NCBI GenBank assembly: GCA_965660545.1 | Contig: CBFIAF010000002.1 | Location: forward strand, 14,335-78,334 | Source of the DNA: Alphaproteobacteria bacterium | GTDB taxonomy: Bacteria; Pseudomonadota; Alphaproteobacteria; Bin95 | Direction of reading: 5' to 3' | DNA: 64,000 nt | Part shown: one piece after another, positions 14,234 to 39,017 of the stretch | Position numbering within the stretch: position 1 is the stretch's first letter | Layout of the letters: each line of letters starts with the position of its first letter | The notes under the pieces: generated by a model | The model's input: the letters and a program-made list of their open reading frames with translations, nothing else | Told to the model about the DNA's origin: nothing | The model's database searches: none | Program-made: the position numbers and the translations under genes

Positions 14234-14940
14234 CAGCCAGTCTCCAGATCAGATTTAAGGCCAAGCGCGCCGAGTACACCGCGCGTCGCCGCTTCAATAA
14301 TGGTTTCCAACTGGGCGGGCTCAATAACACGCCAGCCCAGTTCTTCTTGGACGACCCGCCGCGCAGCTGCGAACACCATGATCTGTCCCATAACGCCGTG
14401 GGCGGCTAGAACCGTTGCCGGCGCATCCACTTCTGTTCCAAGGCTAGCAGCCGTTAGTTTGCCCATAGCTTTGTGGAGCGGTAGCACGCGTTCATCGAGC
14501 ATTGGTCGATAATCGGGCGTCGGGTTCTGAAATTCGCGCAATATTGTCTGCGTAACCCAAGGCTCAAGATCCCCGGAGAGCATCTTTGTCAAGATGTGCC
14601 GGACGACGAAGCAAGCCGAGTCCTTAAGCGCTGATGCTGAAGGCGTATCATCGGCCATGACGGCTTCTATGCGTTCAATTACCGGGCCACCCACGGGACG
14701 CATTTCCTCAAGCAATTGCTCGAGTGCAGCAATATAGAGGCCGCGCTTCCCACCGAAGTGATACGAGACTGCAGATACGTTAACATCGGCTGCATGCGCA
14801 ATTTCCCTAACGCTCACACCATCAAAGCTGCGTTCGGCAAACATGCCGGACGACGCGGCGATCATCCGCGCCCTGCTTTCATCCCCGCCTGGACGGCCCC
14901 TAGCGGAGGTAGATGGTTTCTGGAGAGCATCTACATTCAT
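14233..14940 (-). CDS. TetR/AcrR-family transcriptional regulator
   Basis: It has the HTH VSVREIAHAADVNVSAVSYHFGGKRGLY. It is first in an operon with the MFP and RND genes. Confidence 0.85.
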   Translation of the reverse strand: MNVDALQKPSTSARGRPGGDESRARMIAASSGMFAERSFDGVSVREIAHAADVNVSAVSYHFGGKRGLYIAALEQLLEEMRPVGGPVIERIEAVMADDTPSASALKDSACFVVRHILTKMLSGDLEPWVTQTILREFQNPTPDYRPMLDERVLPLHKAMGKLTAASLGTEVDAPATVLAAHGVMGQIMVFAAARRVVQEELGWRVIEPAQLETIIEAATRGVLGALGLKSDLETG

Positions 14941-15140
14941 GAAACTGATATAGCCAGCTAGAATTATAAAACAAGCGTTTGATTAAGTTAAGAAAGCGGC
15001 ACGCACCATCAAAAGGCTAGTAACCGGACCCCCGACGCATCACATCCTGTCTTGCTATCCTGTGCCACATCCGCGACGGTGCCTGGCCAGAAAGGAGCGC
15101 CTTTTTTAATGTCTCAAATCTGGCCTCAGGCAATTTCAGA

Positions 15141-16451
15141 ATGACGCCGCTTGAACGTCCCGTGAGCCGCGGCGGTCTTTGGGGCTGGCGTTTATTTGAT
15201 TGGGCTAATTCACCCTTTCCGACCGTTATCATCACGTTCGTTTTCAGTGCCTACTACACCCAAGCTGTTGCAAATGATCAGGTAACAGGCAGCAGCTGGT
15301 GGAGTGCAGCTGTCGCTATTTCTGCCGTATGCATCGCGCTGCTAAGCCCGCTACTCGGTGCAATCGCAGACCAAACAGGGCATAGAAAGCCATGGCTCGC
15401 CGCTGCGACGGTCGTCACTATCACCGCGACTGCGATGCTTTGGTTCGTGGCACCTGAGGAACAATGGCTCCTGATGGGTGCCATTCTGATCATTATCGCC
15501 AATGTCGGCTTTGAGATTGGCATGGTGTTTTACAATGCCATGTTGCCCGACCTAGCGCCGCCAAACCGCATCGGTCGCATTTCTGGAGAGGCTTGGGCGC
15601 TTGGCTATGCTGGCGGGCTGCTGTGTCTGGTTGTAGCGCTCCTATTTTTCGTGCAGACGGATACGCCGCCCTTTGGCCTGGATAAGGCAGTGGCAGAGCA
15701 TATTAGGGTCGTGGTGCTGGTTGTCGCCTTATGGATTGCCGTTTTTTCATTGCCGACATTCCTGCTGACTACAGACCGCAAAGGCACAGATATGCCGCTA
15801 CGGCAAGCCGCCCGCAGTGGCATTAAGCAGCTTATTCAAACAGTAAGGAATGTCAGGAAATTTCCCGCCATAACACGCTATTTGATCGCGCGCCTTTTTT
15901 ACGTAGATGGTATGAATACGCTTTTCTTATTTGGCGGCATCTATGCAGCAGGAACGTTCAAGATGAGCGTTGAAGAGATCATCCATTTCGGGATCGCGTT
16001 AAATCTAGCTGCAGGCATAGGCGCTTTCGTATTCGGCCGGGTTGATGATTTGATTGGGCCGAAGAAGGTCATCCTGATTGCTATAGCTGGCATGCTCGCT
16101 GTCTCAACTCCTTTATTGATGGTGGAAGGCAAGCTGCTGTTTTGGGTGTTTGCGTTACCACTTGGCCTGTTCTTCGGCCCTGCGCAGACGGCCAGTCGGT
16201 CACTTATGGCGCGGCTAACGCCTCCGCACATGTCGACTGAAATGTTCGGCCTGTTTGCCCTTTCCGGCAAAGCAACGGCTTTCCTAGGCCCGACTCTTGT
16301 CGGAACCGTCACAATGCTGACAGATAGTCAGCGGATCGGGATGGCTACGATAGCCGTGCTGTTGATCATCGGCGGGCTCATCATGCTTACCGTTGAAGCG
16401 CCGCGTCCATTCCGCGATGAAGCGGTTGCAGATAAACCGCGCCCGTTCTAA
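15141..16451 (+). CDS. MFS transporter, UMF1 (Atg22-like) family
   Basis: The N-terminal WRLFDWANSPFPTVI motif is characteristic of UMF1. The protein has 12 TM helices. Confidence 0.75.
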   Translation: MTPLERPVSRGGLWGWRLFDWANSPFPTVIITFVFSAYYTQAVANDQVTGSSWWSAAVAISAVCIALLSPLLGAIADQTGHRKPWLAAATVVTITATAMLWFVAPEEQWLLMGAILIIIANVGFEIGMVFYNAMLPDLAPPNRIGRISGEAWALGYAGGLLCLVVALLFFVQTDTPPFGLDKAVAEHIRVVVLVVALWIAVFSLPTFLLTTDRKGTDMPLRQAARSGIKQLIQTVRNVRKFPAITRYLIARLFYVDGMNTLFLFGGIYAAGTFKMSVEEIIHFGIALNLAAGIGAFVFGRVDDLIGPKKVILIAIAGMLAVSTPLLMVEGKLLFWVFALPLGLFFGPAQTASRSLMARLTPPHMSTEMFGLFALSGKATAFLGPTLVGTVTMLTDSQRIGMATIAVLLIIGGLIMLTVEAPRPFRDEAVADKPRPF

Positions 16452-16466
16452 ACGACACGCTGATCT

Positions 16467-16868
16467 TTGGAGGCTTATTCCTTGGCGCTGGATCCCAGCC
16501 TAAACGACGTTGCAGATATCTCTGACCTAAGTGGTCCCGATTTGGCCCTGATCGTCGAACTGCAGCGGAAGGAGCTTGATCGCTTGCTCCGTGAGAATGC
16601 GCAGCTGCACGCGCGGGTCAATCAATTGATCGGCCTACAGGAGCGCGAGCAGGTCCTCCGACAGCAGATGCAGTCCATGATGGGCGCGCCCAAAGCTGAG
16701 GCACCGGCAAGTTTATTGGAAGATACCTCCGATCTGGCCGTGCGCGCTCAAACATCAGAGGCGCGTTATGAGCGGCTTAAAGGTGCGATGGCGCTGCTGA
16801 TCACGGCAATTGAACGCGAAAAAGGCACCGATCACACCGTTAGTCCAAGTGCTGAGACTTTTGATTAG
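16467..16868 (+). CDS. Hypothetical coiled-coil protein
   Basis: A 133-aa ORF rich in heptad-like Leu/Gln/Arg. It has no known domain. Confidence 0.3.
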   Translation: MEAYSLALDPSLNDVADISDLSGPDLALIVELQRKELDRLLRENAQLHARVNQLIGLQEREQVLRQQMQSMMGAPKAEAPASLLEDTSDLAVRAQTSEARYERLKGAMALLITAIEREKGTDHTVSPSAETFD

Positions 16869-18457
16869 CTCCCGGCCAAAGCCAGCACCGTTTCAAGGCG
16901 GTCGGCCTCGTCAATCGGCTTATCCCAGCGGATCCGTTTAATCCGCGGAAACCGTAGCGCAACGCCAGACTTATGACGGGTGGACCGCTGGGCTGCATCA
17001 AATGCAACCTCAAACACCAATCCGGGGGCTACTTGGCGCACCGGCCCGAAGCGATCCGTTGTGTTGGCGCGGACCCACTTATCAAGCACCGCTAATTCCT
17101 TATCTGTGAAGCCGGAATAGGCTTTGCCAACTGGAACCAGCGCGTCCTCCTCTGTCCAGGCACCGAATGTGTAGTCTGAGAAAAAGGATGAACGGCGGCC
17201 GTGGCCACGCTGTGCATACATCACCACCAAATCCAGCGTGAGCGGTGCACGTTTCCACTTAAACCAGGGGCCCTGCGGGCGTCCTGCCCTGTAAGGTGCC
17301 GAGCCCAGCTTCAGCATCAGGCCCTCTATACCATCCGCCCTCGCTCCGGCGCGTATTTCTGACAGCGCTTCCCAAGTCGCAAAAGAAACAAGCGGCGAAA
17401 TATCAAACACTTCCGGTGCCGCCGTCCCCCAGGTTTCCAGGCGTGTTCGGCGCACGTCAAAGGTTTTGCCTCGAACATCCTCATCGCCATCAAACAAAAT
17501 ATCATAGGCGCGGATCATGCCAGGTGATGACTGCTGTAACTTTAAAGATGGCCGTTTTCGTCCAAGGCGCTTTTGTAACGCATTGAAATCTGCAACGGGT
17601 GTCAAACCATCACTCCCCGGCTCGCCCTCACCCCGCACAAGGAGTTCACCATCGATAACGCCGTTAAAATCAAAGCCAGAAGTTACGTCTGGGAAACTGC
17701 CGCTTATATCATCGCCTGTGCGGGTATATAGCCGCTGCTCGCCATTTCGAGAGACCGCTTGCACGCGCACACCATCCCACTTCCATTCGGCACGATACGC
17801 CGATGGATCGAGCTTATCGAATGCTGCTTCATCCAGTGGGTTGGCCAGCATAACGGGCCGGAACCCGGCACCAGCTCCCGGGTCCGGCATTGGCCCATTG
17901 CCTTCAAGCCAATCGAACAGCGTTGGATAGGGTGGTTCAAGCCCATGCCAAACCTCCTCAATCTCCGCCGCTTCTTTATCAAACGCCGCCGCAAGCGCAA
18001 CTTTGGCCAAACGCGCAGATACACCAACTCGCAAACCTCCAGTTGCAAGCTTCAACAGCGCCCACCGGCCATCTGCATCCAGCACATCCAACCAAGCCTC
18101 AAGCAGCTTTGGCGTCTCCGCCCGCGTAGCGGCGGACAGCTTATCAACAACCGCGTCAATTGTTGGCGGTGGCGCATTGCGAGGCCGCTCAGGCCAGATC
18201 AAAGCGACGGTTTCAGCAAGGTCGCCGACATAGTCATAGGACATTGCGAACAGGCCTGGATCAACACGCTCATCCACTAAGCCACGGATCACAGAAGATT
18301 TTGCACCGATAAATAAAAGCGCACCTGTAAGCGCCGCCAGGGCGTACCCCCGCGCAGGATCAGGCGTTGTGCGCAGATAATCCCCGATCAGGCGGAGTTT
18401 AGCATTTCGAGAAGGCGTGAACGCGAGCGCATCCAGCAGGCTGGCAAATACTTGCAT
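16865..18457 (-). CDS. ATP-dependent DNA ligase (ligase-associated DNA damage response, LigC-type)
   Basis: The start MQVFASLLDAL…SRNAKLRLIGDYL is the canonical N-terminus. It contains a KWDG adenylation motif, in AEWKWDGVR. Confidence 0.85.
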   Translation of the reverse strand: MQVFASLLDALAFTPSRNAKLRLIGDYLRTTPDPARGYALAALTGALLFIGAKSSVIRGLVDERVDPGLFAMSYDYVGDLAETVALIWPERPRNAPPPTIDAVVDKLSAATRAETPKLLEAWLDVLDADGRWALLKLATGGLRVGVSARLAKVALAAAFDKEAAEIEEVWHGLEPPYPTLFDWLEGNGPMPDPGAGAGFRPVMLANPLDEAAFDKLDPSAYRAEWKWDGVRVQAVSRNGEQRLYTRTGDDISGSFPDVTSGFDFNGVIDGELLVRGEGEPGSDGLTPVADFNALQKRLGRKRPSLKLQQSSPGMIRAYDILFDGDEDVRGKTFDVRRTRLETWGTAAPEVFDISPLVSFATWEALSEIRAGARADGIEGLMLKLGSAPYRAGRPQGPWFKWKRAPLTLDLVVMYAQRGHGRRSSFFSDYTFGAWTEEDALVPVGKAYSGFTDKELAVLDKWVRANTTDRFGPVRQVAPGLVFEVAFDAAQRSTRHKSGVALRFPRIKRIRWDKPIDEADRLETVLALAGS

Positions 18458-18464
18458 CGTAGGA

Positions 18465-19478
18465 TCAGGCCGCCTCTTCCTCACGTCCCGCCAAGCGGAG
18501 CGGACGGGCGCGTTGACCGGCAGCAATGAGGGCATGGGCTAGAGCATCTTCCCTTCCATGGGTAATCCACACTTCCTCAGCCCCCGTTTCCTGGCATGTG
18601 GTGAGTAATTCGTCCCAATCCGCATGGTCTGAAATGACCAACGGCAGTTCCGCACCCCGTTGCCGCGCCCGAGCACGCACACGCATCCATCCTGAGGCAA
18701 CGGCGGTCCGCGGGTTCTGGAAACGCCTGGACCATTTATCTTGAATGGCAGACGGCGGCGCAAAAATCAGAGCTGTGGCCAGTTCTGCCTTATCCGTTCC
18801 AGCCACGGGCCGAACATCACCAAAATCAAAACCAAAGCCTTCATATAAGTCTGTCAGCTTCACCAACGCTCCATGAAGATAAATCGGCTTGCCAAACCCG
18901 GCTTCTCGAACCAGGGACAACATCCGCTGACATTTGCCTAAGCCATAGACGCCCAGTACATGCGCCTGCTCTGGAAACTGAGCTATCGACGTCAACAGCT
19001 TTTGCACTTCCTGAGCCGCTGGGGGATGGCGAAAAACAGGGAGTGCGAACGTAGCCTCTGTTATGAACAGGTCACACTTGATCACCTCAAAGGCCGCTGC
19101 GGTCGGGTCTGGTCTACGTTTATAATCACCGGAAATTACAATCCGCTCGCCGCCATACTCCAGGACTACTTGCGCGCTGCCCAATACATGCCCGGCTGGT
19201 GCCAGCCAGGTTTTCACACCGCCAATTGTGAGACGTTCACCGTAAGTTAAAGCCTGCGTCGCAGGTGTATCGTTAGGATAACGGACACCCATAATCGCGA
19301 GTGTCTCAGGCGTTGCCAGCACCTTACCATGGCCCGGGCGGGCGTGATCAGCATGGCCATGGGTGATGATGGCGTTAGGGACGCCCCGATTAGGATCAAT
19401 GAAGATATCTGCCGGGGCGCAATAGAGACCGGCGTCCCGCAGCTCTAGCCAGCCAAATTTCTGGTCCGCCCGCGCCAA
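18465..19478 (-). CDS. Ligase-associated DNA damage response exonuclease (metallo-beta-lactamase fold)
   Basis: It has the MBL motif ITHGHADH and a C-terminal SDHAD. It lies immediately upstream of the ligase on the same strand. Confidence 0.8.
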   Translation of the reverse strand: MARADQKFGWLELRDAGLYCAPADIFIDPNRGVPNAIITHGHADHARPGHGKVLATPETLAIMGVRYPNDTPATQALTYGERLTIGGVKTWLAPAGHVLGSAQVVLEYGGERIVISGDYKRRPDPTAAAFEVIKCDLFITEATFALPVFRHPPAAQEVQKLLTSIAQFPEQAHVLGVYGLGKCQRMLSLVREAGFGKPIYLHGALVKLTDLYEGFGFDFGDVRPVAGTDKAELATALIFAPPSAIQDKWSRRFQNPRTAVASGWMRVRARARQRGAELPLVISDHADWDELLTTCQETGAEEVWITHGREDALAHALIAAGQRARPLRLAGREEEAA

Positions 19479-19481
19479 GGC

Positions 19482-20354
19482 TTAGCGAGACATCAGCACT
19501 GACATTTCTGCGTACTGCAGAATATGAATTGTCGGCCCGCCAAAAATTGTTTGGCGCAACCGGCTTCGCGTGTAACCACCCTTAATCAGTAAATCGCAGT
19601 TGAGCTTTGTCGCTTCGTCAAGGATTGTAGCGCCAGCAGAACGCCCAGCCGCCTTCACTTTCAAAACATTGGGATTAACCCCGGTTGCCCGCAGATAGCG
19701 CGCCGCCGACTCAGCGTCTGGTCCCGGGGTCATGCCATTGTCGACCTCAAGCAGAGTAACTTCTTGACAATTAAGAAGAAATGGCCGGGCACAGGCCAGC
19801 GAACGTGCTGTTTCCGCACCGCCGTTCCAGGCGATAACGATCCTGTCACCAACGCTTGTCGGCGGCTTTGGCGGCGCGACCAACAGATAGCGGCCACTGT
19901 CAAAGAGCGCGGCCTCAATCAGGCCCATCGATGGTGAATCGCTCGCCTGTGCCGGACGTGACAACGCGACCAGATCAAACAGCCGTGCGTATGCACCAAT
20001 GTCCAAATCTGCCGTGCGCAATTCCGCCCAACGACATTCCGCTTTGGGAAAGGCGTCCATTGAGCCTTCGAACGCATCGCGGACCCGTTGGCTGCGCGCA
20101 GCTTCCTCATTCTCAAGGTTACGGATGAGCGCAGGTGTGGCCGCACCAGTTTCATCAGCAGCAAGCATAACGCTTGGCTCAGCACGCACATGCAGCCCTT
20201 CAATCACGGAAACATCGATGTGCATTGCAACATGTTGTAGCATTGCCGAGATACTCGGCACACCGTTTTCAGTGATTGGCGCTAAGATCGCATACATGGA
20301 CCGCTCTCCCCTATCGAAGCCATATTGAAGTTGCGCATCAGAGTGTACATGCAT
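19482..20354 (-). CDS. Universal stress protein family (tandem UspA domains)
   Basis: It has two Usp-like halves, including the C-terminal DLLIKGGYTRSRLRQTIFGGPT motif. Confidence 0.6.
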   Translation of the reverse strand: MHVHSDAQLQYGFDRGERSMYAILAPITENGVPSISAMLQHVAMHIDVSVIEGLHVRAEPSVMLAADETGAATPALIRNLENEEAARSQRVRDAFEGSMDAFPKAECRWAELRTADLDIGAYARLFDLVALSRPAQASDSPSMGLIEAALFDSGRYLLVAPPKPPTSVGDRIVIAWNGGAETARSLACARPFLLNCQEVTLLEVDNGMTPGPDAESAARYLRATGVNPNVLKVKAAGRSAGATILDEATKLNCDLLIKGGYTRSRLRQTIFGGPTIHILQYAEMSVLMSR

Positions 20355-28635: not shown

Positions 28636-29732
28636 CCATTAAATTCGATCTTCTGGCCGAGGACGGTGCCGCTCGCCGTGGCCGCATTACGACCGCCCAC
28701 GGGACCATTGAGACCCCAGCGTTCATGCCCGTTGGCACTGCCGGTACGGTTAAAGCCATGCGGCCAGAAGAGGTTGAGGCAGCGGGCGCTGAGATCATCC
28801 TCGGCAACACTTACCATCTGATGCTGCGGCCTGGTGCCGAGCGGGTCAACCGCCTTGGGGGACTGCATAACTTCATGCGCTGGCCAGGGCCAATCCTGAC
28901 CGATTCAGGGGGGTTTCAGGTGATGTCGCTTTCTGAACTTCGCAAGATTACAGAGGACGGTGTCCGTTTTCGCAGCCACATAAATGGTTCCTATATCGAT
29001 CTGACCCCAGAGCGGTCGATCCAGATCCAAAACCTATTGGACGCCACCATCACAATGGCGTTTGATGAATGCACCCCCTTTCCGGCGGAACATGCCGTTG
29101 CGGCAAAGTCCATGCAGCTCTCGATGCGTTGGGCCAAGCGCAGCAGCTATGCATTTGAAGCCAGGCCTGGATATGGCCTGTTCGGCATCGTCCAAGGCGG
29201 GGTTTATGAGGATTTGCGGGTTGAAAGCGCTGGCATGCTGCAAGACATAGGCTTTGATGGTTATGCCGTTGGGGGGCTTGCGGTCGGCGAAGGCCAGGAG
29301 CAAATGTTCGAAACCTTGCAGGCCACCACGCCACATCTGGCCCGTGAGCGCCCGCGATACTTGATGGGAGTCGGCAAACCGGCGGATATCATCGGTGCGG
29401 TTGCGCGCGGTGTGGACATGTTTGATTGCGTTCTGCCGACGCGGTCTGGCCGTACCGGCCAGGCCTGGACATGGGATGGACCGCTCAACCTTCGCAATGC
29501 CAAACATCGGGATGACGCAAACACGCCGCTAGACCCTAATTGCGTATGCCCTGTATGCCAAAAATATGACCGAGCTTACCTCCACCATCTGACTAAAGCG
29601 CAAGAGGTACTCGGCCTCATGCTACTAACCCAGCACAATCTTTGGCATTATCAAGATCTAATGCGACGAACGCGTGCTGCGATTGAAGCAGGTACATTTA
29701 GCACATTTTTAGCGAAATACAGCATTAAATAA
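28632..29732 (+). CDS. tgt: Queuine tRNA-ribosyltransferase (tRNA-guanine transglycosylase)
   Basis: It has the Tgt N-terminus …[22 protein letters not shown] and the zinc-site CxCxxC…H. It overlaps queA by 4 nt. Confidence 0.9.
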
Positions 29733-30096
29733 AATATCTAACTAAAATAATTATAAAAAAATTCTATATTATACAATAATAAAACTACAATAAAATTAAT
29801 ATTTTTTGCTTTTTATACGATAAAATTTTGGTAAATTATAATATATAAAAATTATTTTTAGTTAACTCCTTGTTAAATTGATTTCTACATTATTTGAGCA
29901 TACTATGCACCGCGAAAACATTTTTATGCGGCAGCGTGATGAAGCTTCAGGCAACACTCAGGCCCTCTCACGAAGCAAAGGAATTCACACTATGGGTTTG
30001 ACCGTAAGGTGTACATGAGCTTTACCAGCCGAAAATTCGCATTAGCGTCGCGAACTGAGCGCTGATATGATTCTCTGACGTCACGGCAGTGTAGTC

Positions 30097-31075
30097 ATGA
30101 AGCCCAACAGTCTTTTCAGACTTTCGGATCATCTGGCCATACTTAGCAAGCACGGCGATCCGCTTGAGGTTCTCCATGTGACGTCGGACTTCAAGTGTTT
30201 CTGGGACTGGCTGGTTGAGGGACTCGGTTACGGGGACGGCGCCAAGGACGGCCGGCCGCCGTTCGATCCGGTGTCTATGTTCAAGGCGCTGATCCTGCAG
30301 GCGCAGCGCAATCTATCGGACGTGCGGATGGAGTTCATGATCCGGGGCCGTTTGTCGTGGATGCACTTCCTGGGCTTCGACTGGCAATTGAGGAAGAAAG
30401 GCTACATCCCCCCTCTCAGCGATTGCGCGCAATCGCCTGCCGGGCAACGCATGTCCGGCCAGAGCGTGGGCGCCTCCTTGGTTCCAGCCCCGAAGCAGCG
30501 GAACACGGAGGATGAGAAGGCGGCCATCAAGGCGGCTCAGAAGGACACAAATGCCCGCTGGACATTGAAGATCAGCGGCAAGGTCCGCTACCGCCTTGAC
30601 GGAACGGCGTTGCCGATGATCGCGATCCCGACCTTCGGCTACAAATCGCACATTGCGATCGACCGTCGATACAGCTTTATCCGCAGCTTCGCCGTGACAT
30701 CGGCAGCCCACGGCGATGGCAAAGTGCTGCGCCGAGTCGTGACCACGGATAATACCAGCGGCAATGTATGGGCGGACAGCGCCTATCGCTCCAAGGCGAA
30801 TGAGGCATGGTTCTCGAGCTAGGTGCCGCGCAGCCAGATCCATCGTCGCAAGCTTAAAGGCAGGCCGATGTCATCGGCCACATCTCGTGCCAATGGCAAG
30901 AAGTCGAGTATCCGTGCCGGTGTGGAGCATGTCTTCGCCCATTAGAAGAACCACTATGGGCTGTTCATTCGCACGATCGGCCTGACGCGGGCCGAGGCGA
31001 AACTGACTCTCGCCAATCTCGCCCATAATATGGACCGGCTCGTGTTCCATGAACGGCGCGTCGCCACAGGATAAA
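30097..31075 (+). mobile_element. IS5-family insertion sequence remnant; the transposase ORF is disrupted by in-frame stops and an internal deletion
   Basis: The N-terminal part (30097..30822) matches IS5/IS4-type DDE transposases (…APKQRNTEDEKAAIKA…). The C-terminal motifs KGRPMSS…VEHVFAH*KNHYGLFIRTIGLTRAEAKLTLANLAHNMDRL continue in another frame, with TAG stops at about 30820 and about 30942. The GC content is about 60%, against the surrounding AT-rich DNA. Confidence 0.7.
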
Positions 31076-32004
31076 TCCGCCTGACTTTAGAGAAATCCGC
31101 CATTCTACGGCGGAAATACCCGATCAGCACATAATAGATGCGTCCTCACCCGCGCAGCTTTGCCTTATTGGCTTGTACCGCAATCAGAATAAACGGTTGA
31201 TACAGGTGTCCTGCTGGTATCTTTGAAACACCAGTCGCATTCACCATTGTTTGTGCTACATTTGGCACGCCGTGCATGGCATTCTGGACATTATTTGGCG
31301 CAGCATTTGCCCGCGTTTTCCAGAATCCGAAGGCCCGCCGCATTATCGGCTGTACGCTGCCGATCATCCTTCTCGCAACAATCCCATTCATGTTCCGCTG
31401 AATAGAAAAAGGCCGGGCCTCCTTGGTGGAGGCGCGGCCCATCGATAGCCGTAAAGATGAAAGTGTCGTTTGGCGCTTACAGAACTGGAATATAAAATAA
31501 ATGAATATCTAACAGTATGTTAATGCTATTCATAAAATAACGTATTTTATACGTACTTTTAAGTTTTATCGAGAAAAATCATAAAACCAACCTGCAATCT
31601 AGTATTTATACATATTCTTTTCATGCGCATCAGGTTGTTTTCAAGCTCATTCAATCGATTAAATAGCCGATTGGGACCAGCATAACTTAGTGCGCTATGA
31701 CGAACGATCGCACGTATATCAGTTTCCGGTTCCTAGGTTCGGTCGCTTATTTGATCGGCTGTTTCTGAGAAGGGTGATACGTTCTGTCATTGCTATGAGC
31801 CAGGTGCCGCTCTTCTGGGATGTATTTCGGACTGGTAGGCGTTCAATCCGAGACAGAGCGCTCTGTGACTTCATACTCAGGGCTTCGATCACAATTCCTG
31901 CTTTGCCAGCAACCATCCGTCATTCAGTAACGCATGCTCCGAGACACCTATCGCGCTACCAAAAGTGTATTTCATTCATTTGCACTTTCTGCCAGACTCT
32001 TCGT

Positions 32005-33036
32005 ATGAAAAACCTAACAGCCACGATCTGCCTCGGCGTTGCCCTGCTTCTTGGAAGTAAGGGAATGGCTTGGAGCCAAGATTTTGAAAAGGGTCTAACC
32101 GCTGCTAAAAGTGGAGATTATTCAACTGCTCTGTGGGAATGGACGCCTCTTGCGAAACAGGGGTATTCCGATGCCCAATACAATCTGGGAGTGATGTACG
32201 AAAATGGGCAAGGTGTTCCAAAGAACTATGTGACTGCTGTAAAATGGTACAGACTTGCCGCCGAACAAGGGGTTGCCGATGCCCAGTTCAATCTGGGTAA
32301 TGCATACCGCCACGGACTAGGTGTTCCACAAAACGATAAGACTGCTGTGAAATGGTACAAACTTGCCGCCGAACAGGGGAATGCCACTGTCCAGTACATT
32401 CTGGGACAGATATACCGCCAAGGAAAAGGTGTTCCCCAGGATTATAAGACAGCAGTGAAGTGGTACACACTTGCTGCCGAACAGGGGGGTGCCAATGCCC
32501 AAGGAAATCTGGGTGTTATGTACAGCGCAGGACAAGGTGTTCCCGCGGACAATAAGACAGCAGTGAAGTTATTCAAACTTGCTGCCGAACAAAGGTACGC
32601 CGATTCCCAGTACAATCTGGGTGTGATGTACAGCAAAGGACAAGGTGTTCCCCAGGATTATAAGACAGCGGTGAAGTGGTATACACTTGCTGCCGAACAG
32701 GGGGATGCCTCTGCACAGTACAATCTTGGTGTGATGTGCGAAAATGGACAAGGCATTCCCCAAGATTATAAGACAGCGGTGAAGTGGTACACACTTGCTG
32801 CTAAACAGGGCGATGCTGATGCCCAGACCAATCTCGGTGTGATGTATGGAACGGGAAGAGGGGTCATGCAGAATTTTGTTTATGCCCATATGTGGGGAAA
32901 TCTTGGTGCCTCTAATGGGAGTGAGAATGGAGGTAAGTTGCGAGAAATCGCCGCTAAAAAAATAACCCCGTCCCAACTTGAAACCGCTCAGAAACTTGCC
33001 CTTGAATGTGTCCGTAAGAAGTATTTAGGGTGTTGA
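32005..33036 (+). CDS. Secreted Sel1-like repeat (SLR/TPR-like) protein, about 7 repeats (family paralog A)
   Basis: It has the signal peptide MKNLTATICLGVALLLGSKGMAWS. It carries tandem 36-aa units AQYNLGVMYxxGQGVPQDYKTAVKWYxLAAEQG. It has a cysteine-containing C-terminal tail …ECVRKKYLGC. The start is chosen at ATG 32005; the 31690 ORF start is an upstream read-through. Confidence 0.8.
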   Translation: MKNLTATICLGVALLLGSKGMAWSQDFEKGLTAAKSGDYSTALWEWTPLAKQGYSDAQYNLGVMYENGQGVPKNYVTAVKWYRLAAEQGVADAQFNLGNAYRHGLGVPQNDKTAVKWYKLAAEQGNATVQYILGQIYRQGKGVPQDYKTAVKWYTLAAEQGGANAQGNLGVMYSAGQGVPADNKTAVKLFKLAAEQRYADSQYNLGVMYSKGQGVPQDYKTAVKWYTLAAEQGDASAQYNLGVMCENGQGIPQDYKTAVKWYTLAAKQGDADAQTNLGVMYGTGRGVMQNFVYAHMWGNLGASNGSENGGKLREIAAKKITPSQLETAQKLALECVRKKYLGC

Positions 33037-33210
33037 GTAAAACCTAACTGAGTGCCCGATATGCAATCGCTCGTCCTATTCCCATCCGCTTCGCAGTTGC
33101 AGACGCACTTAAGTCACTAACGCCCAGCATTAATCCCCCCAATTTGCGAGATGCCCATAGCGCTCCCACAAGGGTATTTGCTCCAATCCCACTTTCTGCA
33201 AACTTTTTGC

Positions 33211-33315
33211 ATGAGAAATCTGACTGCCACCATCTGCCTCGCCGTTGCCCTGCTCCTTGGAAGTGCGAGGGTAGCTTGGAGTGCTGGTTTTCAAAGGGGA
33301 TATGCTGGATACCAG
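33211..33315 (+). pseudogene. Orphan 5' module of the Sel1 family (leader, signal peptide, about 35 codons), with no repeat body
   Basis: MRNLTATICLAVALLLGSARVAWSAGFQRGYAGY is near-identical to the paralog B start. The reading frame then runs into unrelated or antisense sequence. Confidence 0.5.
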
Positions 33316-33450
33316 AGGAGTTGCGTAATCACCACTTTTGTATGCGATTACACCCTTTCTAAACTCTGGCTCCAAGACCCTCCCGCACTTCCAAGAAGCA
33401 GGACAACGGCCAGGCAGGGTCTGGCGGTCAGTTTTTTAGACGGAGAGTCT
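33301..33450 (-). pseudogene. Second orphan 5' module of the Sel1 family in inverted orientation, start codon lost and frameshifted, abutting the + strand orphan head-to-head
   Basis: The reverse-strand translation KKLTARPCLAVVLLLGSAGGSWSQS, then (frameshift) EFRKGVIAYKSGDYATPL, parallels the paralog A start MKNLTATICLGVALLLGSKGMAWSQDFEKGLTAAKSGDYSTAL. Confidence 0.45.
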
Positions 33451-33549
33451 GACAGAGAATATTTAGAATGGGTAGAGAGAAAGGGGTGTGGGTAGAGTTA
33501 TGGGAAATAGGAAGGGCGCGCGTGTATCGGGCACTCGGTTATATTTTAC

Positions 33550-34149
33550 TCAACATCCTTTGTAGTTTTTGCGGGCACATTCACGGGCAAGTTTCTTTGC
33601 GGTAGAGATTTCGGCGGGGGTCATCTTTTTCCCAAAATCATCCATCAAATTCGCACCCAACTTATTTCCATTGGTCGCAGCGATGCTTCCCCACATGTGA
33701 GCATATATATACCCTTTTAGCACTCCCCGTCCCAATGCGTACATCAAACCTAGACCAAACTGGGCATCGGCATCACCTTGTTCGGCGGCAAGTTTGTACC
33801 ACTTCACCGCAGTCTTATAATCCTGCGGAACACCTTGCCCGTTGGCGTACATCACACCCAGATTGTACTGGGCAAAGGCATTCCCCTGTTCGGCAGCAAG
33901 TTTGTACCATTTCACCGCAGTCTTATAATTCTTGGGAACACCTTGTCCGTTGGCGTACATCAAACCTAGATTGTACTGGGCATCGGAATGCCTCTGTTCG
34001 GCAAGAGGTGTCCATTCACGCAAAGCAGTTGCGAAGTCACCGCTCTTGTATCCCGCATACCCCCTTTGAAAATCAGCACTCCAAGCTACCCCCGCACCTC
34101 CAAGAAGCAGGGTAACGGCGATACAGATGGTAGCGGTCAAGTTTCTCAT
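33550..34149 (-). CDS. Secreted Sel1-like repeat protein, about 3 repeats (family paralog B)
   Basis: It has the signal peptide MRNLTATICIAVTLLLGGAGVAWS, Sel1 units AQYNLGLMYANGQGVPKNYKTAVKWYKLAAEQG, and the same C-terminal tail …ECARKNYKGC as paralog A. Confidence 0.8.
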   Translation of the reverse strand: MRNLTATICIAVTLLLGGAGVAWSADFQRGYAGYKSGDFATALREWTPLAEQRHSDAQYNLGLMYANGQGVPKNYKTAVKWYKLAAEQGNAFAQYNLGVMYANGQGVPQDYKTAVKWYKLAAEQGDADAQFGLGLMYALGRGVLKGYIYAHMWGSIAATNGNKLGANLMDDFGKKMTPAEISTAKKLARECARKNYKGC

Positions 34150-35361
34150 ACGGAAAGTTTCGCAGAAAGTGGAATTGGTGCAAATAGCCTTGTGGAAGCG
34201 CCATCGACAGGCAAGTGTATCTCGTAACGTAGGTGGGTCACATGCTGGGCGTCGGTGACTAAATCGTATCAGCAGCCCCCTAGAGGGCTTTGTCGCACAT
34301 TCTCATGGGGCTTTTTGTACTTCTAAGATTTTAACAGCGGGCATAAATTTATTGGTGGTAGCTTTGATCTAAACTCCTGAAATAATGTGATATCTTAATA
34401 CAATTCGAACAAAAAAATTTTGCTTTTATAAATAATTCCTGGTTATTATGATTATGTCGAATTGGTTTGTTTATTTATAACTACAATTTTTTCGGCGGCA
34501 ATTTAATATTCGATCGTATACAAAGTTATATTCTAAAGATATTCAAATACAATATACTGAGTAATTTTTAAAATATAGGCATATATTTATGTAAAAAAGC
34601 CATATTTAATACTGCAATGAAGTAAAATATGGTCCTTGTAAACAATGATAAAAATAATAAATTTTTACCAACACTCTCTGTTATAGCGCGAGTTGCCTCT
34701 TCTATATTTTGATTAATTTCAATTATTGATTTAAGAGACTCTTTCGTAAGTGCGCCTTGGAGGCAGCAGAAAGGCATTGAATGTCCCTCTTCCGGTTACC
34801 AAATTAATGATGTGATTTAATTGCAGGGGTTCTTTTTAGCAATTATGCAATTAAAATTGCGTTTCTCTGCGGACGGAGGCTATTCAAGCAGTGCTGGCGC
34901 ATTATCACCTCTCCAATGCGCCTCAACACTCCTCTGAAAGTTTAGCGATACGGCACCAGAGACAGCCCAATCTCCAAAGCTTTGAGTTACGTTTCATTCG
35001 TTTAACCTTCTTATATCACGACCTGATAATCGTAAGCCCAGCATCTAACGATTGACCAGACGCTTTATCTTCAGATTACTCGCAGGATCGCGCCTCGTTC
35101 AGCGGAGGAGGGCACGATGGTCGTCCTTGAACTTGTGAGCGTCTAACACCCGTTTCTCTATGGAAATATCAAAAATCATGGCGTTAGCGTAGAAATCGGT
35201 CAAAATGCTATGTAAGCGCCCGTGAAGCGGTGAGCTGCCAGTAAGCGCTCTCACCGCTCATTTGTAGCCCTGAGTGCAGCTTATCGGAGCTGTCTGTATT
35301 TTTCAGCAACGCATACCAAAGTCGTGACGGTTGACGAACTCTGATTCATCCTTTGAGTTAA

Positions 35362-35565
35362 CCCATTGAGCGCATCAGTATTTGGGCAAAAATACCAGAA
35401 AAACTTACTTTTCCACAACTTGAGTCCTTCCTATGGGAAAGCGCAGACATCTTTCGTGGAAATATGGATGCGTCAGAGTTCGAGGACTACATTTTTGGGA
35501 TGATGGTCCTGAAGCATCTTTCGGACCCGTTCGAGGAAGAGCGAGTAGTTAGTCTTAAATTATGA
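35362..35565 (+). pseudogene. hsdM: Relic N-terminus of a type I restriction-modification methyltransferase (HsdM), about 65 codons, with no start and a premature stop
   Basis: …TFPQLESFLWESADIFRGNMDASEFEDYIFGMMVLKHLSDPFEEER matches the conserved HsdM N-terminal domain (LWxxADxLRGxMDASEYKxYIxGLxFLKxLSDxFEE). A stop lies 5 codons upstream and a TGA follows after RVVSLKL. Confidence 0.65.
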
Positions 35566-35831
35566 CTGAGCAATTCCAGGAACTTTCGAATTTCGTAGAG
35601 GAAGAAATGCGCATGATGCTTTTGTATAAGTCAGTGATGCTTAAGGGACATGACCACCATCTGTAACCGATATCAGATGAACGAATGAGACCTAATGAGA
35701 CGTGCTATCGTGGAGTTCATCACTGACATCCAAAAGGACCCGAGTAATACCTCACGTCATATGTTTCTCTGAGGTCCCACTCGGACATTACATGCCTGAA
35801 AGACCCCGCAGCATGGTGTCTGAGCCATCTC

Positions 35832-36590
35832 CTATTTCATAAATTTTTTAAAGAACTCTATCGTTCGTTTATGAGAGTCTTTGGTGACAAAATCATTATA
35901 AATATATTTTCTATGGTTCTTTCGATCCCAAGCATGACCAACGCCAGTGTAAATATGAGTATTAATTGTTGCACCTCTGCTTTTTATTTCACTCCAGGCT
36001 TCCTGTGCAAAATTTAGACTTTGTATTTTATCAACATCACCATGCAACGCCAATATTGGATTGCTAGATTTGGAGAAATAATTCATAGGGTAGGGGTTGG
36101 TTATCTCTCTACCAAAATTTGCCTTCCAAACTCCATAGTGAGAAACACCGGCGCTCACTTTCGAACTACCCGTTAGATAACCAACCCAGAACCCCCCGTT
36201 GGAAAAACCTGTGGCAAAAATGTTTTCTTTCTCGACCTTAGGTTCATTGTGCATGAGACCAACAACTTCAGATAAATCGTTTTCGATGTCCTCCCTAAAC
36301 CGATCGAATGTGCTCATCCTCGACCGAGTGGTTATGCCATATTTAACAAAGAAATTTGGAGCATAAACAGCGAAACCATCATCTACATAGCGCTGGATAA
36401 GATGTCCTACTGTCTTAAATCCTCCGCTGGTATGAAGTGCTATTACCGCTGGGAATGGACCGGAACCATTAGGAAAGAATTTTTCATGGTAAATTGCTTC
36501 TGCTCGGACGCTGCTAGCAAAGAATAAATAAACTACCAAAGCCAAATAAAATTTAGTGCATATGTACATTTTTACATTCCTCTGAATCAA
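35832..36590 (-). CDS. Secreted alpha/beta hydrolase, dienelactone-hydrolase-like
   Basis: It has an N-terminal signal peptide, the nucleophile elbow GFSNGG, an acid residue in LHGDVD, and a histidine in GVGHAW. The gene has very low GC relative to the genome. Confidence 0.65.
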   Translation of the reverse strand: MIQRNVKMYICTKFYLALVVYLFFASSVRAEAIYHEKFFPNGSGPFPAVIALHTSGGFKTVGHLIQRYVDDGFAVYAPNFFVKYGITTRSRMSTFDRFREDIENDLSEVVGLMHNEPKVEKENIFATGFSNGGFWVGYLTGSSKVSAGVSHYGVWKANFGREITNPYPMNYFSKSSNPILALHGDVDKIQSLNFAQEAWSEIKSRGATINTHIYTGVGHAWDRKNHRKYIYNDFVTKDSHKRTIEFFKKFMK

Positions 36591-36592
36591 AA

Positions 36593-36672
36593 TTGCTTTT
36601 ACCTCAACTTACTCCGCACTTCCAAAAAACAGTGCAACTGCAAAGCATGTGGTGGCAGTCAAGTTTATCATA
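36593..36672 (-). pseudogene. Third orphan Sel1-family leader/signal-peptide start (MINLTATTCFAVALFFGSAE*), sitting directly upstream of the hydrolase gene
   Basis: The reverse-strand ATG at 36672 is followed by a 19-codon SP-like ORF. The roughly 135 bp upstream (36655-36790) is about 80% identical to the region upstream of paralog B (34134-34270). Confidence 0.5.
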
Positions 36673-36859
36673 CGGAAAGTCTGGTAGACCGTGGGAATGC
36701 AGAAAATACCCTTGTGAAAGCGCCATCGGCGGGCAAGGGCATCTCGCAGCGTGGGCGAGTCAATGCTGGGCGTCAGTGACTAAAGTGCGTCTGCGATTGC
36801 GAAGGAAATGGGGATAGGCAGAGCGAGCGTGTATCTGGCATTAGGGTGGTAGAGGTCAG

Positions 36860-37688
36860 TCGAGATTTTGGAAGATAGCCTTCTTGGTCCGCATCTCTTC
36901 AATCTGAGCAGTCGTCATCCAGCAAGATAAATAATAGGTTCCATCAGATATCATCTTCCCAAGAGCAGTCTTGGAGATTGATGCTCTATTGGATTTGCGA
37001 GAAGTGATGTTTTTACTCTCCAAAATGCTTCTTACCACACTCGTCTGATGCCAAAGTTGGTATTCTCCGGTAGTGAGCCGAATTCCTCGAGTGTCTTTGT
37101 TATGTGCCCTTCATCCGTCGCAACACGAAGAAACTCATTGATCAGGGATGCTTAAGCTCGAAGCGTTGCAAAGCAGGGGTCTACAACAATGTTACGGGAT
37201 GCTGTGCCTTTTGCCCCAATACGCTTCTCGTTCACCTCTATGCGCTTTTTGCGCTTGAGGTCTTTCCAGTAGTTCAGGCGATAATCCTAGTAGCCATCGC
37301 AGAAGGGCTTTGTGAGATTGCCGAGAACCTTCTTTCCCATGAACTCTGAGACGTAGCGTTCATAGACACTGCGCTTCCATTCGAGGCGTTTCTCAGTGAC
37401 GTGATGCTGTTTACGATCAAGCCAGTCATGGAAGAACTTATCGACTGTGACCTCTGTCAGAGAGAAGCCACCCTTATGTTTCACTAAGAGATCGACATAA
37501 GCAGCTTGCGCTTTGAGGATTACCTCGCTGGCATCTGATGTGCCGCAGCTTCGTCGTATGTAACCGGCAATGCCTTCGACCTTTGCTCGGAAAAAGAACC
37601 TATCGCTATCTAGGTCGTTACGCCGAAAGATAATCAGCCTGCTGCCGTGAAGAGGGCTCTTTTGGCGGTCTTTATAAGCCTCAGGCAT
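36860..37688 (-). pseudogene. Relic of a P4-type tyrosine integrase; an N-terminal arm-binding/SAM-like region of about 133 aa is intact (37287..37688), and the remainder is interrupted by stops
   Basis: The N-terminus has the DUF4102-like pattern (…GSRLIIFRRNDLDSDRFFFRAKVEG…) and the core-binding-like pattern (…FFHDWLDRKQHHVTEKRLEWKRSVYERYVSEFMGKKVLGNLTKP). A TAG after …CDGY is followed by unrelated frames, and no R..HxxR..Y catalytic box was found. Confidence 0.4.
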
Positions 37689-37804
37689 GACGTCCGTGCT
37701 TTTTTGAGAACTGCTGGTCTGAAACGAGAACTGGTAACGGAACGTGCTTGATTCGTGCCTTTCTCATCAACCCAGTAAAGCAGGAATCGCAGAGTTCTGC
37801 GAGT

Positions 37805-37842
37805 CGTGCGTCAGACGTGCCTCCAAAGAAAAAGAGCTTCGC
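37805..37842 (-). terminator. Intrinsic terminator downstream of rpsI
   Basis: On the minus strand, a GC hairpin GCTTCGCTTCGGCGAAGC is followed by TCTTTTTCTTTGG, about 50 nt after the rpsI stop. Confidence 0.5.
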
Positions 37843-37887
37843 CGAAGCGAAGCCCTTGATACATATAAATATATTGTAGTATTTGTC

Positions 37888-38391
37888 CTAGCGCTTCGAG
37901 AACTGAAAGCTACGACGGGCTTTAGCCCGACCATACTTCTTACGCTCTACCATGCGGCTATCACGTGTAACGAAACCTGCAGCTTTCAGCGCAGGGCGGA
38001 GGCCCGGCTCAAAAGCCATCAGCGCGCGTGTCAGGCCATGGCGCACTGCGCCAGCTTGGCCAGACAATCCACCGCCTTTAACGGTGCATATCAGGTCATA
38101 CTGATTGAGGCGGTTCGCAACATCGAACGGGGACAGTGCGAGCATCTGCAAGTTGGCCCGGGAGAAATATTCGGTCACGGTCTTGCCGTTTACCGTCATC
38201 CTGCCGGAACCAGGCTTGATCCAAACGCGTGCGACTGATTCTTTACGACGACCTGTGCCATAGGAACGGCCATGCTCGTCGATCTTCGGATCGGGCAGAG
38301 CATCGCTGGACATTTCAGCACCGCCGCCTTGGGCACCATCTTCACCGAGCGCGTCTTTCAAGTCCGCGAGAGTGCGTGTTTCATCAGCCAT
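37888..38391 (-). CDS. rpsI: 30S ribosomal protein S9
   Basis: The C-terminus …[19 protein letters not shown]…[25 protein letters not shown] is the S9 signature. Confidence 0.95.
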
Positions 38392-38870
38392 TAGCTGGAC
38401 CTCCGAGCGCGGAACGCGTTCTTATTGTTCATAGATGCGACATCCAGGGGCTGAGGCTCCTGGGCTGCATGGGGATGATCTGGACCAGAATAAACGTGCA
38501 ACTTTTTGATCGATGCACGGGCAAGCTTGGTTTTAGGCAGCATCCGCTCGACAGCTTTTTCGATCACGCGCTCCGGGAAGCGGCCTTCGAGAATTTCATG
38601 TGCGGTGACACTCTTAATGCCACCTGGGTAGCCGGTGTGGCGATAATAGGTTTTGTCTTGACGCTTGTTGTTGCCTGTCATGGCAACTTTTTCAGCGTTA
38701 ATGACGACGATGTGATCGCCGCAATCAACATGCGGTGTGAATTGGGGCTTGTGCTTGCCGCGGAGGCGCATCGCGATGACGCTTGCGAGACGGCCTAGAA
38801 CAAGGCCTTCCGCATCAATCACGTTCCATGCACGCGCGACCTCGCCCGGTTTGGCTGAGACCGTTGACAT
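38391..38870 (-). CDS. rplM: 50S ribosomal protein L13
   Basis: [30 protein letters not shown]… is the canonical L13. The start is set at the internal ATG, and TAATG overlaps rpsI. Confidence 0.95.
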
Positions 38871-39017
38871 TGGGATGTTGCTCCAGTGGAAATTCCGTTG
38901 AACCGGACGCAATGCAAGAGCCCGGCCGAGGCCAGGGTATACCGGCGTCTTGTATGCAATGTCAACGCAAAAAATTCCGCGTTTTCCGTCATTTATGTAT
39001 GGGGTATTATAATACCG

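Follow-up and report, generated by a model that had tools for sequence, protein, structure and literature searches.

What is the GC-poor block that separates tgt from the rplM–rpsI ribosomal protein operon in an uncultured marine alphaproteobacterium, and where does it begin and end? The block lies in a 64,000-nt stretch of contig CBFIAF010000002.1 (assembly GCA_965660545.1), which was analyzed as a whole and is referred to here as the window. An earlier note, made from the bare sequence, had described positions 29733–37887 as a single 8.2-kb island reaching from tgt to rpsI. Sliding 1-kb windows bear out that this region is distinct from its surroundings: its guanine plus cytosine (GC) content is 46.7%, versus 55.5% for the remaining 55.8 kb (1-kb windows: mean 55.5%, standard deviation 2.2%), and almost all 1-kb windows from 31001 to 37001 lie more than two standard deviations below the window mean. 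The flanks, given in the note as 58–60% GC, measure approximately 55–58%, and the core genes recognized around the region by a Pfam scan are tgt, queA, rpsI, and rplM. Horizontal acquisition is supported by composition and by the presence of a dead integrase gene, but the true span is shorter than proposed. Positions 31491–37887 (6397 nt, 45.3% GC) are very probably the immobilized remnant of an integrative island that entered by tyrosine-recombinase site-specific recombination at the last ~20–25 nt of rpsI. This conclusion is drawn because of two attachment-site (att) cores, the direct repeats around an intact related island (contig L192), a junction contig (L191), the position of the integrase gene, the boundary seen in a variant contig (L092), base composition, and the pattern of decay. 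As a decayed integrative island, the region is ordinary in kind and well resolved. The features that delimit it are as follows.

37888–37908, minus strand: predicted attL core and right island boundary, the last 21 nt of rpsI including its stop codon, TTTCAGTTCTCGAAGCGCTAG
37832–37857, minus strand: element-borne intrinsic terminator of the rplM–rpsI operon, an 11-pair hairpin with a T-run
31491–31660, no strand: AT-rich tract 2, 25.9% GC, the distal element arm adjoining attR; 31481–31919 is homologous to the left arm of L191 (79.7%)
31470–31490, minus strand: predicted attR core and left island boundary, a degenerate copy of the rpsI 3′ end, TTCCAGTTCTGTAAGCGCCAA
31405–31442, minus strand: putative displaced ancestral rpsI terminator, a GC-rich hairpin and U5 approximately 27 nt past the attR core, with the fold computed

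The right boundary is set by comparison within the population. Exact-protein look-ups recovered many contigs of the same population from seawater metagenomes, 99.3–100% identical to the window, as well as another allele represented by three contigs (L092, L094, and L096). From 40004 down to 37892 (2.1 kb, comprising rplM–rpsI and upstream DNA), L092 and the window are 100% identical. The first mismatch falls at 37891, within the last sense codon of rpsI, and thereafter approximately one base in five to six differs. Because L092 diverges from 37891, the island starts at the rpsI stop codon and the proximal terminator, which lies in the zone that differs between the strain alleles, is island DNA. 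The hairpin previously placed at 37805–37842 and taken as the right edge is thus relocated to 37832–37857, inside the element.

The left boundary was recognized through the rpsI terminus itself. The last 21 nt of rpsI are conserved among these genomes, with the consensus TTCCAGTTCTCGAAGCGCTAA, and with up to three mismatches this consensus occurs at just two sites in the 64 kb, the rpsI end and 31470–31490, both on the same strand; none of 100 shuffled controls contained any match. The distal copy carries three mismatches to the consensus and sits at a step in GC content from 52% to the 26% of the adjoining tract. Its translation ends in FQFCKRQ, and a single base change would turn its CAA codon into a TAA stop. 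Together, 31470–31490 and 31405–31442 match the expectation for the original rpsI tail and terminator, apparently displaced, and the same layout of a repeat followed by the native terminator is found at the attR of the L192 island. The copy emerged only after the core had been defined from relatives: a generic repeat finder run over 29000–38500 returned no flanking direct repeat, and a 53-nt Smith–Waterman query for an att copy was not significant. A third core-like match at 30042–30057 was rejected, as its score is below the null median. No tRNA or tmRNA gene was detected by ARAGORN in the 64-kb window, and 29000–39000 is devoid of Rfam matches at E ≤ 1; the note had made the same observation about tRNA and tmRNA. 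Its further statement that no attachment site was obvious has been superseded, since the putative att site is the rpsI 3′ end, with a second, degenerate copy at 31470–31490.

These findings bear directly on the extent of the island. A single 8.2-kb unit running from the tgt stop codon at 29732 to the rpsI terminator would account for the low GC that starts immediately past tgt (13.7% over 29733–29900) and for the last ~10 codons of tgt, which are AT-rich, unlike those of relatives at least 92% identical. The weak core-like match at 30042–30057, which abuts an insertion sequence (IS) relic, could furthermore mean an older tandem accretion. However, three features (the repeat of the rpsI core, the displaced terminator, and the junction in L191) end the island at 31490, the intervening DNA from 29901 to 31469 has 49–59% GC, and the 30042 match does not reach the median of the null distribution. 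The longer island is therefore improbable, and the left edge is moved from the tgt stop codon to 31490, leaving the leftmost 1.74 kb (an AT-rich tract, an IS5 relic, and other DNA) separate from the island at rpsI.

The layout expected of an undecayed element is provided by L192, a 62.5-kb contig with the same upstream order as the window (ECH-4HBT-rplM-rpsI). Its island is intact and 10.2 kb long, and comprises int, a 66-residue open reading frame (ORF), hsdM, hsdS, hsdR, a YgjP-like gene, an 84-residue ORF, and a resolvase gene. The island has 41–47% GC compared with 49–58% in its flanks and is bounded by 28-bp direct repeats (26 of 28 positions identical) that include the rpsI end, with the native terminator just past the distal repeat. 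In L191, the homologues of both island ends are joined via a single core, TTCCAGTTCTCGAAACGTTAG: nucleotides 3–441 correspond to the window from 31919 to 31481 (79.7%), and nucleotides 425–1265 to the window from 37915 to 37086 (79.6%). The right arm of L191 is identical to L092 from 22 nt past the core. L191 would thus represent an attP configuration, either that of an excised circle or that of a junction between tandem elements.

It could be argued that no site-specific event took place, and that a low-GC hypervariable region was instead swapped by homologous recombination in the conserved flanks, with the integrase fragment being incidental. A homologous-recombination breakpoint would indeed show the same abrupt change from 100% identity to divergence that is seen where rpsI ends, and the interior of the island is nearly identical between samples. 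Nevertheless, this explanation is hardly credible given the duplication of the rpsI end at the far boundary, the 28-bp direct repeats around the intact L192 island, the attP-type junction of L191, and the constant distance between integrase gene and rpsI in ten contexts. The gene and the arm that adjoin the rpsI boundary comprise the following features.

37092–37688, minus strand: tyrosine-integrase pseudogene, ~198 N-terminal codons with two in-frame stops, the catalytic domain gone
37816-20, 37805-09, 37754-58, 37743-47, and 37695-99 (span 37695–37820), minus strand: five GCACG repeats, putative arm-type sites
37726–37733 and 37706–37713, minus strand: two core-like CAGTTCTC copies just upstream of the integrase start

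The 5′ end of the integrase relic faces the right boundary, as had been proposed, and adjoins rpsI, with its ATG 200 nt past the rpsI stop codon. Searching with the conceptual translation that runs leftwards from 37688 identified 12 homologues (P0001–P0012). The window sequence is colinear with them up to approximately residue 198 and unrelated beyond; its two nonsense sites replace a conserved tryptophan (TAG) and a conserved glutamate (TAA). In L097, L098, L099, L117, L154, L173, L174, L176, and L192, the integrase gene lies 160–200 nt downstream of rplM–rpsI and is co-directional with it, so that every homologue with a readable context is located at rpsI (nine contexts besides the window), most of them with different gene neighborhoods. 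Among the matches listed for arbitrary metagenome rpsI loci with at least 500 nt downstream, 5 of 57 (~9%) carry this integrase.

Full-length members of the family have ~480 residues. The catalytic domain of PF00589 enzymes employs the residues R-K-H-R-H/W-Y. Full-length L174, L192, and P0011 score 31–36 bits with PF00589 (cut-off 27.1), and scores over the family range from 22 to 36 bits, a marginal similarity to characterized integrases. For the N-terminal core-binding (SAM-like) domain, the L192 integrase matches PF14659 over residues 82–131 (27 bits; cut-off 22.6), and the 133-residue integrase ORF of the window is without any Pfam or NCBIfam match. The window copy is a pseudogene fragment of a PF00589 superfamily member and not a functional member. 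The earlier assignment to the P4 type was rejected, as PF13356 (DUF4102/Arm-DNA-bind_3) is absent from the relic and from full-length P0005, P0011, L174, and L192, and the element does not target a tRNA or tmRNA gene; the relic belongs instead to the divergent ~480-residue clade. A search with a full-length member yielded no fewer than 98 clusters (90% identity threshold), nearly all of metagenomic origin. There is no specific NCBIfam model for the clade, and a PDB search with the full-length integrase found no relative.

A distant member is that of L174 (integrase ~27% identical), which is also past rpsI, at 10405–19630 of a 303-kb contig of ~60% GC. Past its integrase gene, 8 kb or more of 36–53% GC DNA encodes a resolvase, an MmeI-type restriction-modification enzyme, and an IS3-family element. 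A distal att repeat was not found within the sequence at hand for L174, L154, L173, or L099.

The region between rpsI and the integrase gene has the same order in all members: the rpsI stop codon, ~45 nt, a hairpin with a T-run (in the same place in every family member printed, as read by eye), a pair of short motifs, further motif copies, the core-like CAGTTCTC, a last motif, and the ATG. The motifs occupy spacer positions ~67 and ~78 (11 nt apart), one or two positions at ~117–141, and a last position at ~188, and nine further members of the family have a 5-mer of their own lineage at these spacer positions. The motif is GCACG in the window; TCACG in L092, L191, and L097; an overlapping GAGTC in L154; GCGCA in L098, L099, L117, L173, and L192; (TT)GACAA in L174; and GTAGC in L176. 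The integrase of the variant allele, P0001, is 57% identical to that of the window over residues 1–72 and 95% identical over residues 73–198. The two alleles share one population, and their arm motifs differ (TCACG vs GCACG) at equal positions. Integrase N-terminal domain and arm repeats thus appear to co-vary, and the motifs are candidate binding sites of that domain. Copies like CAGTTCTC also occur in L097, L098, L099, L117, L154, L173, and L192; more generally, one or two copies of a core-like (T)TCCAGTTCTC are present 25–45 nt before the integrase start in most family members, the copy in L191 being inverted. The (T)TCCAGTTCTC copies may be core-type sites of the integrase in the promoter region of its own gene.

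A tyrosine integrase at a gene end could also be left over from a prophage, a phage satellite, or a conjugative or mobilizable element. Mobilizable elements are among those found at rpsI in Firmicutes (IMESag-rpsI, PMC5704250), and with much of the window element deleted, the corresponding modules could have been lost. This origin is nonetheless very unlikely. Six-frame Pfam scans of the unassigned parts detected no phage, relaxase, coupling-protein, or replication genes, and the intact L192 island contains only the integrase, two small ORFs, the type I restriction-modification system, the YgjP-like gene, and the resolvase. Among 50,697 phage records and 72,556 plasmid records, no close relative of the family integrase was found, the matches being remote or spurious; those in the phage collection are solely Lactiplantibacillus phage integrases (30% identity over 36% of the query). 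The interior of the window element records how the island has decayed.

37092–37098, no strand: deletion junction at which the integrase is fused to a protease tail, 7-nt microhomology AAAGACA
36856–37091, minus strand: 3′ remnant of a MORN-repeat/trypsin-like serine protease gene, ~80 codons, frameshifted
36784–36852 (plus strand), 33044–33109 (minus strand), and 33501–33539 (plus strand): resolvase C-terminal (helix-turn-helix) relics adjoining Sel1 units
36614–36780, minus strand: orphan Sel1 leader and signal-peptide fragment, a 77% direct repeat of 34092–34240, with inverted repeats to 33153–33267
35832–36569, minus strand: intact dienelactone-hydrolase-family alpha/beta hydrolase (PF01738, 79 bits, cut-off 21, E = 5e-22), 39% GC
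35398–35559, plus strand: hsdM N-terminal relic (type I restriction-modification methylase; HsdM_N E = 6.5e-12, model positions 1–47 of 135)
34291–34780, no strand: AT-rich tract 3, 28.8% GC, including a 69-residue ORF at 34568–34777 (minus strand)
33550–34149, minus strand: secreted Sel1-repeat protein, 199 residues, three repeats (PF08238, E = 2.6e-34, 117 bits)
33211–33315 (plus strand) and 33353–33437 (minus strand): two head-to-head Sel1 signal-peptide fragments
32005–33036, plus strand: secreted Sel1-repeat protein, 343 residues, seven repeats (PF08238, E = 2.5e-83, 272 bits)

The deletion junction is defined by a three-way comparison of the window with L191, in which the integrase continues, and L181, in which the protease continues. 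The protease gene of L181 is intact (at least 450 codons), and its product matches MORN and Trypsin_2. L181 (from 37105) and L186 (from 37070) match the window at 99.7% leftwards down to 34841, and both stem from the same two samples as the variant contigs L094 and L096. The integrase of L191 is itself cut approximately 16 codons past the junction point by an IS-like end, whose inverted reading ends in a transposase-like C-terminus.

The window and the variant therefore agree at 99–100% in rpsI and at 99.7% in the cargo (37105–34841), as opposed to ~80% in the att–arm–integrase segment. This discrepancy is among the grounds for a composite origin, in which a second, related element integrated at rpsI beside an island already in place, and the inner att site, the catalytic regions of both integrases, and the genes between them were subsequently lost by deletion. 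Integrase/arm module and cargo would then have different histories, which refines the remnant reading and is compatible with it. The microhomology junction at 37092–37098 agrees with such a deletion, and L191 fits a junction between tandem elements. An identical pattern would, however, arise if homologous recombination had exchanged one allele of the integrase module for another, and no contig was found that runs from the variant's integrase to the protease gene. The composite history is accordingly a possible refinement, to be held tentatively.

The gene content listed in the earlier note (an IS5 transposase relic, a Sel1 family, an hsdM relic, a dienelactone-hydrolase-like enzyme, and an integrase N-terminal relic) was recovered item by item; the IS5 relic, at 58.7% GC, is not AT-rich. 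All three of its AT-extreme tracts are present as well (29733–29900, 13.7% GC; 31491–31660; and 34291–34780), with no sequence similarity to each other above chance. The hydrolase gene has a GC content at third codon positions of 35%, compared with 58–60% for core genes nearby. Its product carries an N-terminal signal-like sequence and, as read from the sequence, a GFSNGG nucleophile motif; its scores with NCBIfam equivalogs are far under the cut-offs, and at least 180 homologues share 48–82% identity with it. In exact-protein look-ups, the ATG-start form was found in 11 population contigs, and the 252-residue TTG-start form and both Sel1 proteins were without a match. The interior from 36814 to 33880 and the hydrolase gene are 99.9–100% identical across many samples; therefore, the remnant is common in this population.

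The Sel1 genes are duplicated, truncated, and arranged head-to-head. The 343-residue gene is built of 108-nt units, six of them in-register copies with a start-to-start distance of 108 nt. Both intact genes encode signal-peptide-like N-termini, and three more Sel1 5′ fragments lie in the region. Two of these truncated 5′ ends (leader and signal peptide) face each other within 33147–33437, 54 nt apart. The direct-repeat leaders at 36614–36780 and 34092–34240 lie on either side of the 2.5 kb with the lowest GC in the island, a segment that holds the hydrolase gene, the hsdM relic, and AT-rich tract 3; the 69-residue ORF in that tract has no family match and is called as a gene in population contigs too. 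The two secreted Sel1 proteins and the secreted hydrolase look functional. The translation of the resolvase relic at 36784–36852, SASAIAKEMGIGRASVYLALGW, agrees at 19 of 21 residues with the tail of the L174 island resolvase (printed translations), and the Sel1 cassettes seem to have been copied along with a piece of the resolvase gene. The hsdM relic is 73% identical (36 of 49 residues) to the N-terminus of the L192 island HsdM. It does not qualify as a member of the HsdM family, which combines HsdM_N with an N6_Mtase catalytic domain, as HsdM_N positions 1–47 alone survive, and it is a relic that is inverted relative to the integrase, unlike the gene in L192.

The arrangement reflects the following sequence of events. 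Prior to integration, the site would have read rpsI…TTCCAGTTCTC-AAGCGCTAA, followed by the homologue of window 31469 to 31405. The element brings its own copy of the rpsI end, such that rpsI finishes in element DNA after integration, with strand exchange presumably within the core. This copy is followed by a strong terminator of the element's own, by the ~200-nt arm with its repeated short motifs, which would act as arm-type sites of the integrase, and by the integrase gene, co-directional with rpsI. The element terminator may shield the integrase gene from read-through out of the ribosomal operon. The original rpsI tail (31470–31490) and terminator (31405–31442) were displaced to the far end of the island. 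Decay introduced the two nonsense mutations into the integrase gene, and a deletion across the 7-nt microhomology took its catalytic half and fused the rest to the protease tail. A type I restriction-modification module like that of L192 has shrunk to a 50-codon hsdM fragment and the resolvase gene to three C-terminal scraps, while the secreted Sel1 genes multiplied and recombined. The island is probably no longer self-mobile.

Several observations weigh against this account. The attR copy in the window is degenerate, and its gapped alignment score of 27 alone falls only between the 95th (26) and the 99th percentiles of a whole-window, both-strand null. No empty attB site, in which rpsI would run directly into the terminator at 31442–31405, was recovered from a close relative; among the matches listed in a metagenome scan with the N-terminal part of RpsI, neither the same species nor an empty site was found. 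L191 could stem from a junction of tandem elements and not from an excised circle, and the IS-like end disrupts its integrase. The integrase module (~80% to the variant) and the cargo (99.7%) may differ in origin, making the island a composite. The inverted hsdM relic requires that internal rearrangements be assumed. Finally, the binding of integrase to the repeats and the insulation by the terminator are deductions from sequence patterns.

Integration of islands at the rpsI 3′ end by tyrosine recombinases is established in Firmicutes (PMC5341023, PMC5704250, PMC4701971), and rpsI is among the targets mapped by TIGER (PMC7192596 supplement). The McRImecD island of Macrococcus is flanked by direct repeats that include the rpsI end, and its excision has been demonstrated, whereas the variant McRImecD-2 is without the distal repeat and does not excise (PMC5341023). 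McRImecD resembles the window island in that its integrase gene is immediately downstream of rpsI and its direct repeats with the rpsI end are imperfect, the displaced rpsI 3′ end lying in the distal repeat. The non-excising state of McRImecD-2 parallels the decayed window island, and in the related Macrococcus strain JCSC5402 the cargo is a restriction-modification system. In contrast, McRImecD resides in a Firmicutes host rather than in marine Alphaproteobacteria, carries mecD rather than Sel1, hydrolase, and restriction-modification genes, and has repeats of ~160 bp with a 61-bp core, compared with ~21–28 bp here. IMESag-rpsI and other streptococcal integrative mobilizable and integrative conjugative elements also integrate in rpsI (PMC5704250, PMC4701971, PMC5357655). 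IMESag-rpsI similarly has a tyrosine integrase at the rpsI 3′ end, a small size (~9 kb), and miscellaneous cargo, but elements of its type carry relaxase/mobilization and Rep_Trans modules, none of which was seen in the window or L192. The likeness to the Firmicute islands rests on site and layout and not on integrase sequence.

Other integrases offer partial parallels. Lambda-type enzymes share with this family a ~70-residue N-terminal domain ahead of a predicted core-binding (SAM-like) domain, short arm repeats at fixed positions (11 nt apart here, with binding presumed), and, by analogy, a repeat sequence that shifts with the integrase N-terminal region (57% vs 95% between the alleles). They differ in that no excisionase was recognized here and the sequence similarity to characterized integrases is marginal. 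The dusA-associated islands (PMC4482086) likewise combine a dedicated integrase clade with one conserved housekeeping gene, many genomes, and variable cargo; however, they target the dusA 5′ end and belong to another integrase clade. P4-type islands also have an integrase at the edge facing the att site and low-GC cargo, but they target tRNA or tmRNA 3′ ends and carry a DUF4102 domain, neither of which applies here.

The window island is a further case of the already known targeting of the rpsI end; its mechanism is standard, and the understanding of how such elements work is unaltered. What is gained for annotation is a set of exact boundaries, an identified att site, a decay history, and an IS relic set apart from the island. 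In uncultured marine Alphaproteobacteria, as in Firmicutes, the rpsI stop-codon region emerges as a hotspot where islands integrate repeatedly. A literature search found no alphaproteobacterial counterpart at the rpsI end, which is weak evidence of absence. Metagenome assemblies routinely break at the rpsI end, and therefore such islands are under-reported. More doubtfully, the integrase clade might define a widespread family, formally undescribed, of minimal islands that integrate in marine Alphaproteobacteria, use the rpsI terminus as attB, replace the terminator of the essential rplM–rpsI operon with their own, and shuttle mainly restriction-modification and other accessory cargo. If so, the co-variation of N-terminal domain and arm repeats could act as a natural specificity code, and read-through past the element terminator might tie integrase expression to growth rate. 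Lineage-specific arm repeats at fixed positions, together with a mosaic integrase N-terminal domain, constitute a natural experiment on arm-site specificity. If further effort is warranted anywhere, it is for the wider integrase family and the co-variation of its arm repeats.

The DNA to the left of the island (29733–31469) holds the displaced terminator, 349 nt without a family match, and two further features.

30071–31094, plus strand: relic of an IS5-family element outside the rpsI island, with a frameshifted transposase gene
29733–29900, no strand: AT-rich tract 1 adjoining tgt, outside the island, 168 nt

The IS5 relic matches DUF772 at 47.9 bits, above the cut-off, and DDE_Tnp_1 partially at 21 bits (cut-off 23), and scores 72 with NF033581 compared with the required 140; its terminal inverted repeats are weak (14 of 17 nt). 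A LysE-type gene fragment considered at 31140–31400 (plus strand) was dropped, as it has no Pfam support. Fourteen population contigs carry this Tgt, and of the six tgt-side contigs shown, five end at 30067. The shared end point, 4 nt ahead of the relic's weak left inverted repeat, suggests that the genome has further IS copies. The population contigs on the tgt side, whose overall identity to the window is at least 99.9%, also contain tract 1. The window Tgt has 366 residues compared with 371–376 in relatives at least 92% identical, ending 5–10 residues earlier, and the tgt end and tract 1 may together be traces left by an earlier insertion or deletion. Among the matches listed in a Tgt scan of species-representative genomes, rpsI or rplM lies within 10 kb in none of 80 loci, and tgt is near rplM in none of 160 more distant loci listed. 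The closest Tgt proteins listed from species-representative genomes are 70–71% identical (a Rhodospirillales metagenome-assembled genome and Caenispirillum), and relatives at least 90% identical occur in metagenomes and in a metagenome-assembled genome named ‘Alphaproteobacteria bacterium’ at NCBI.

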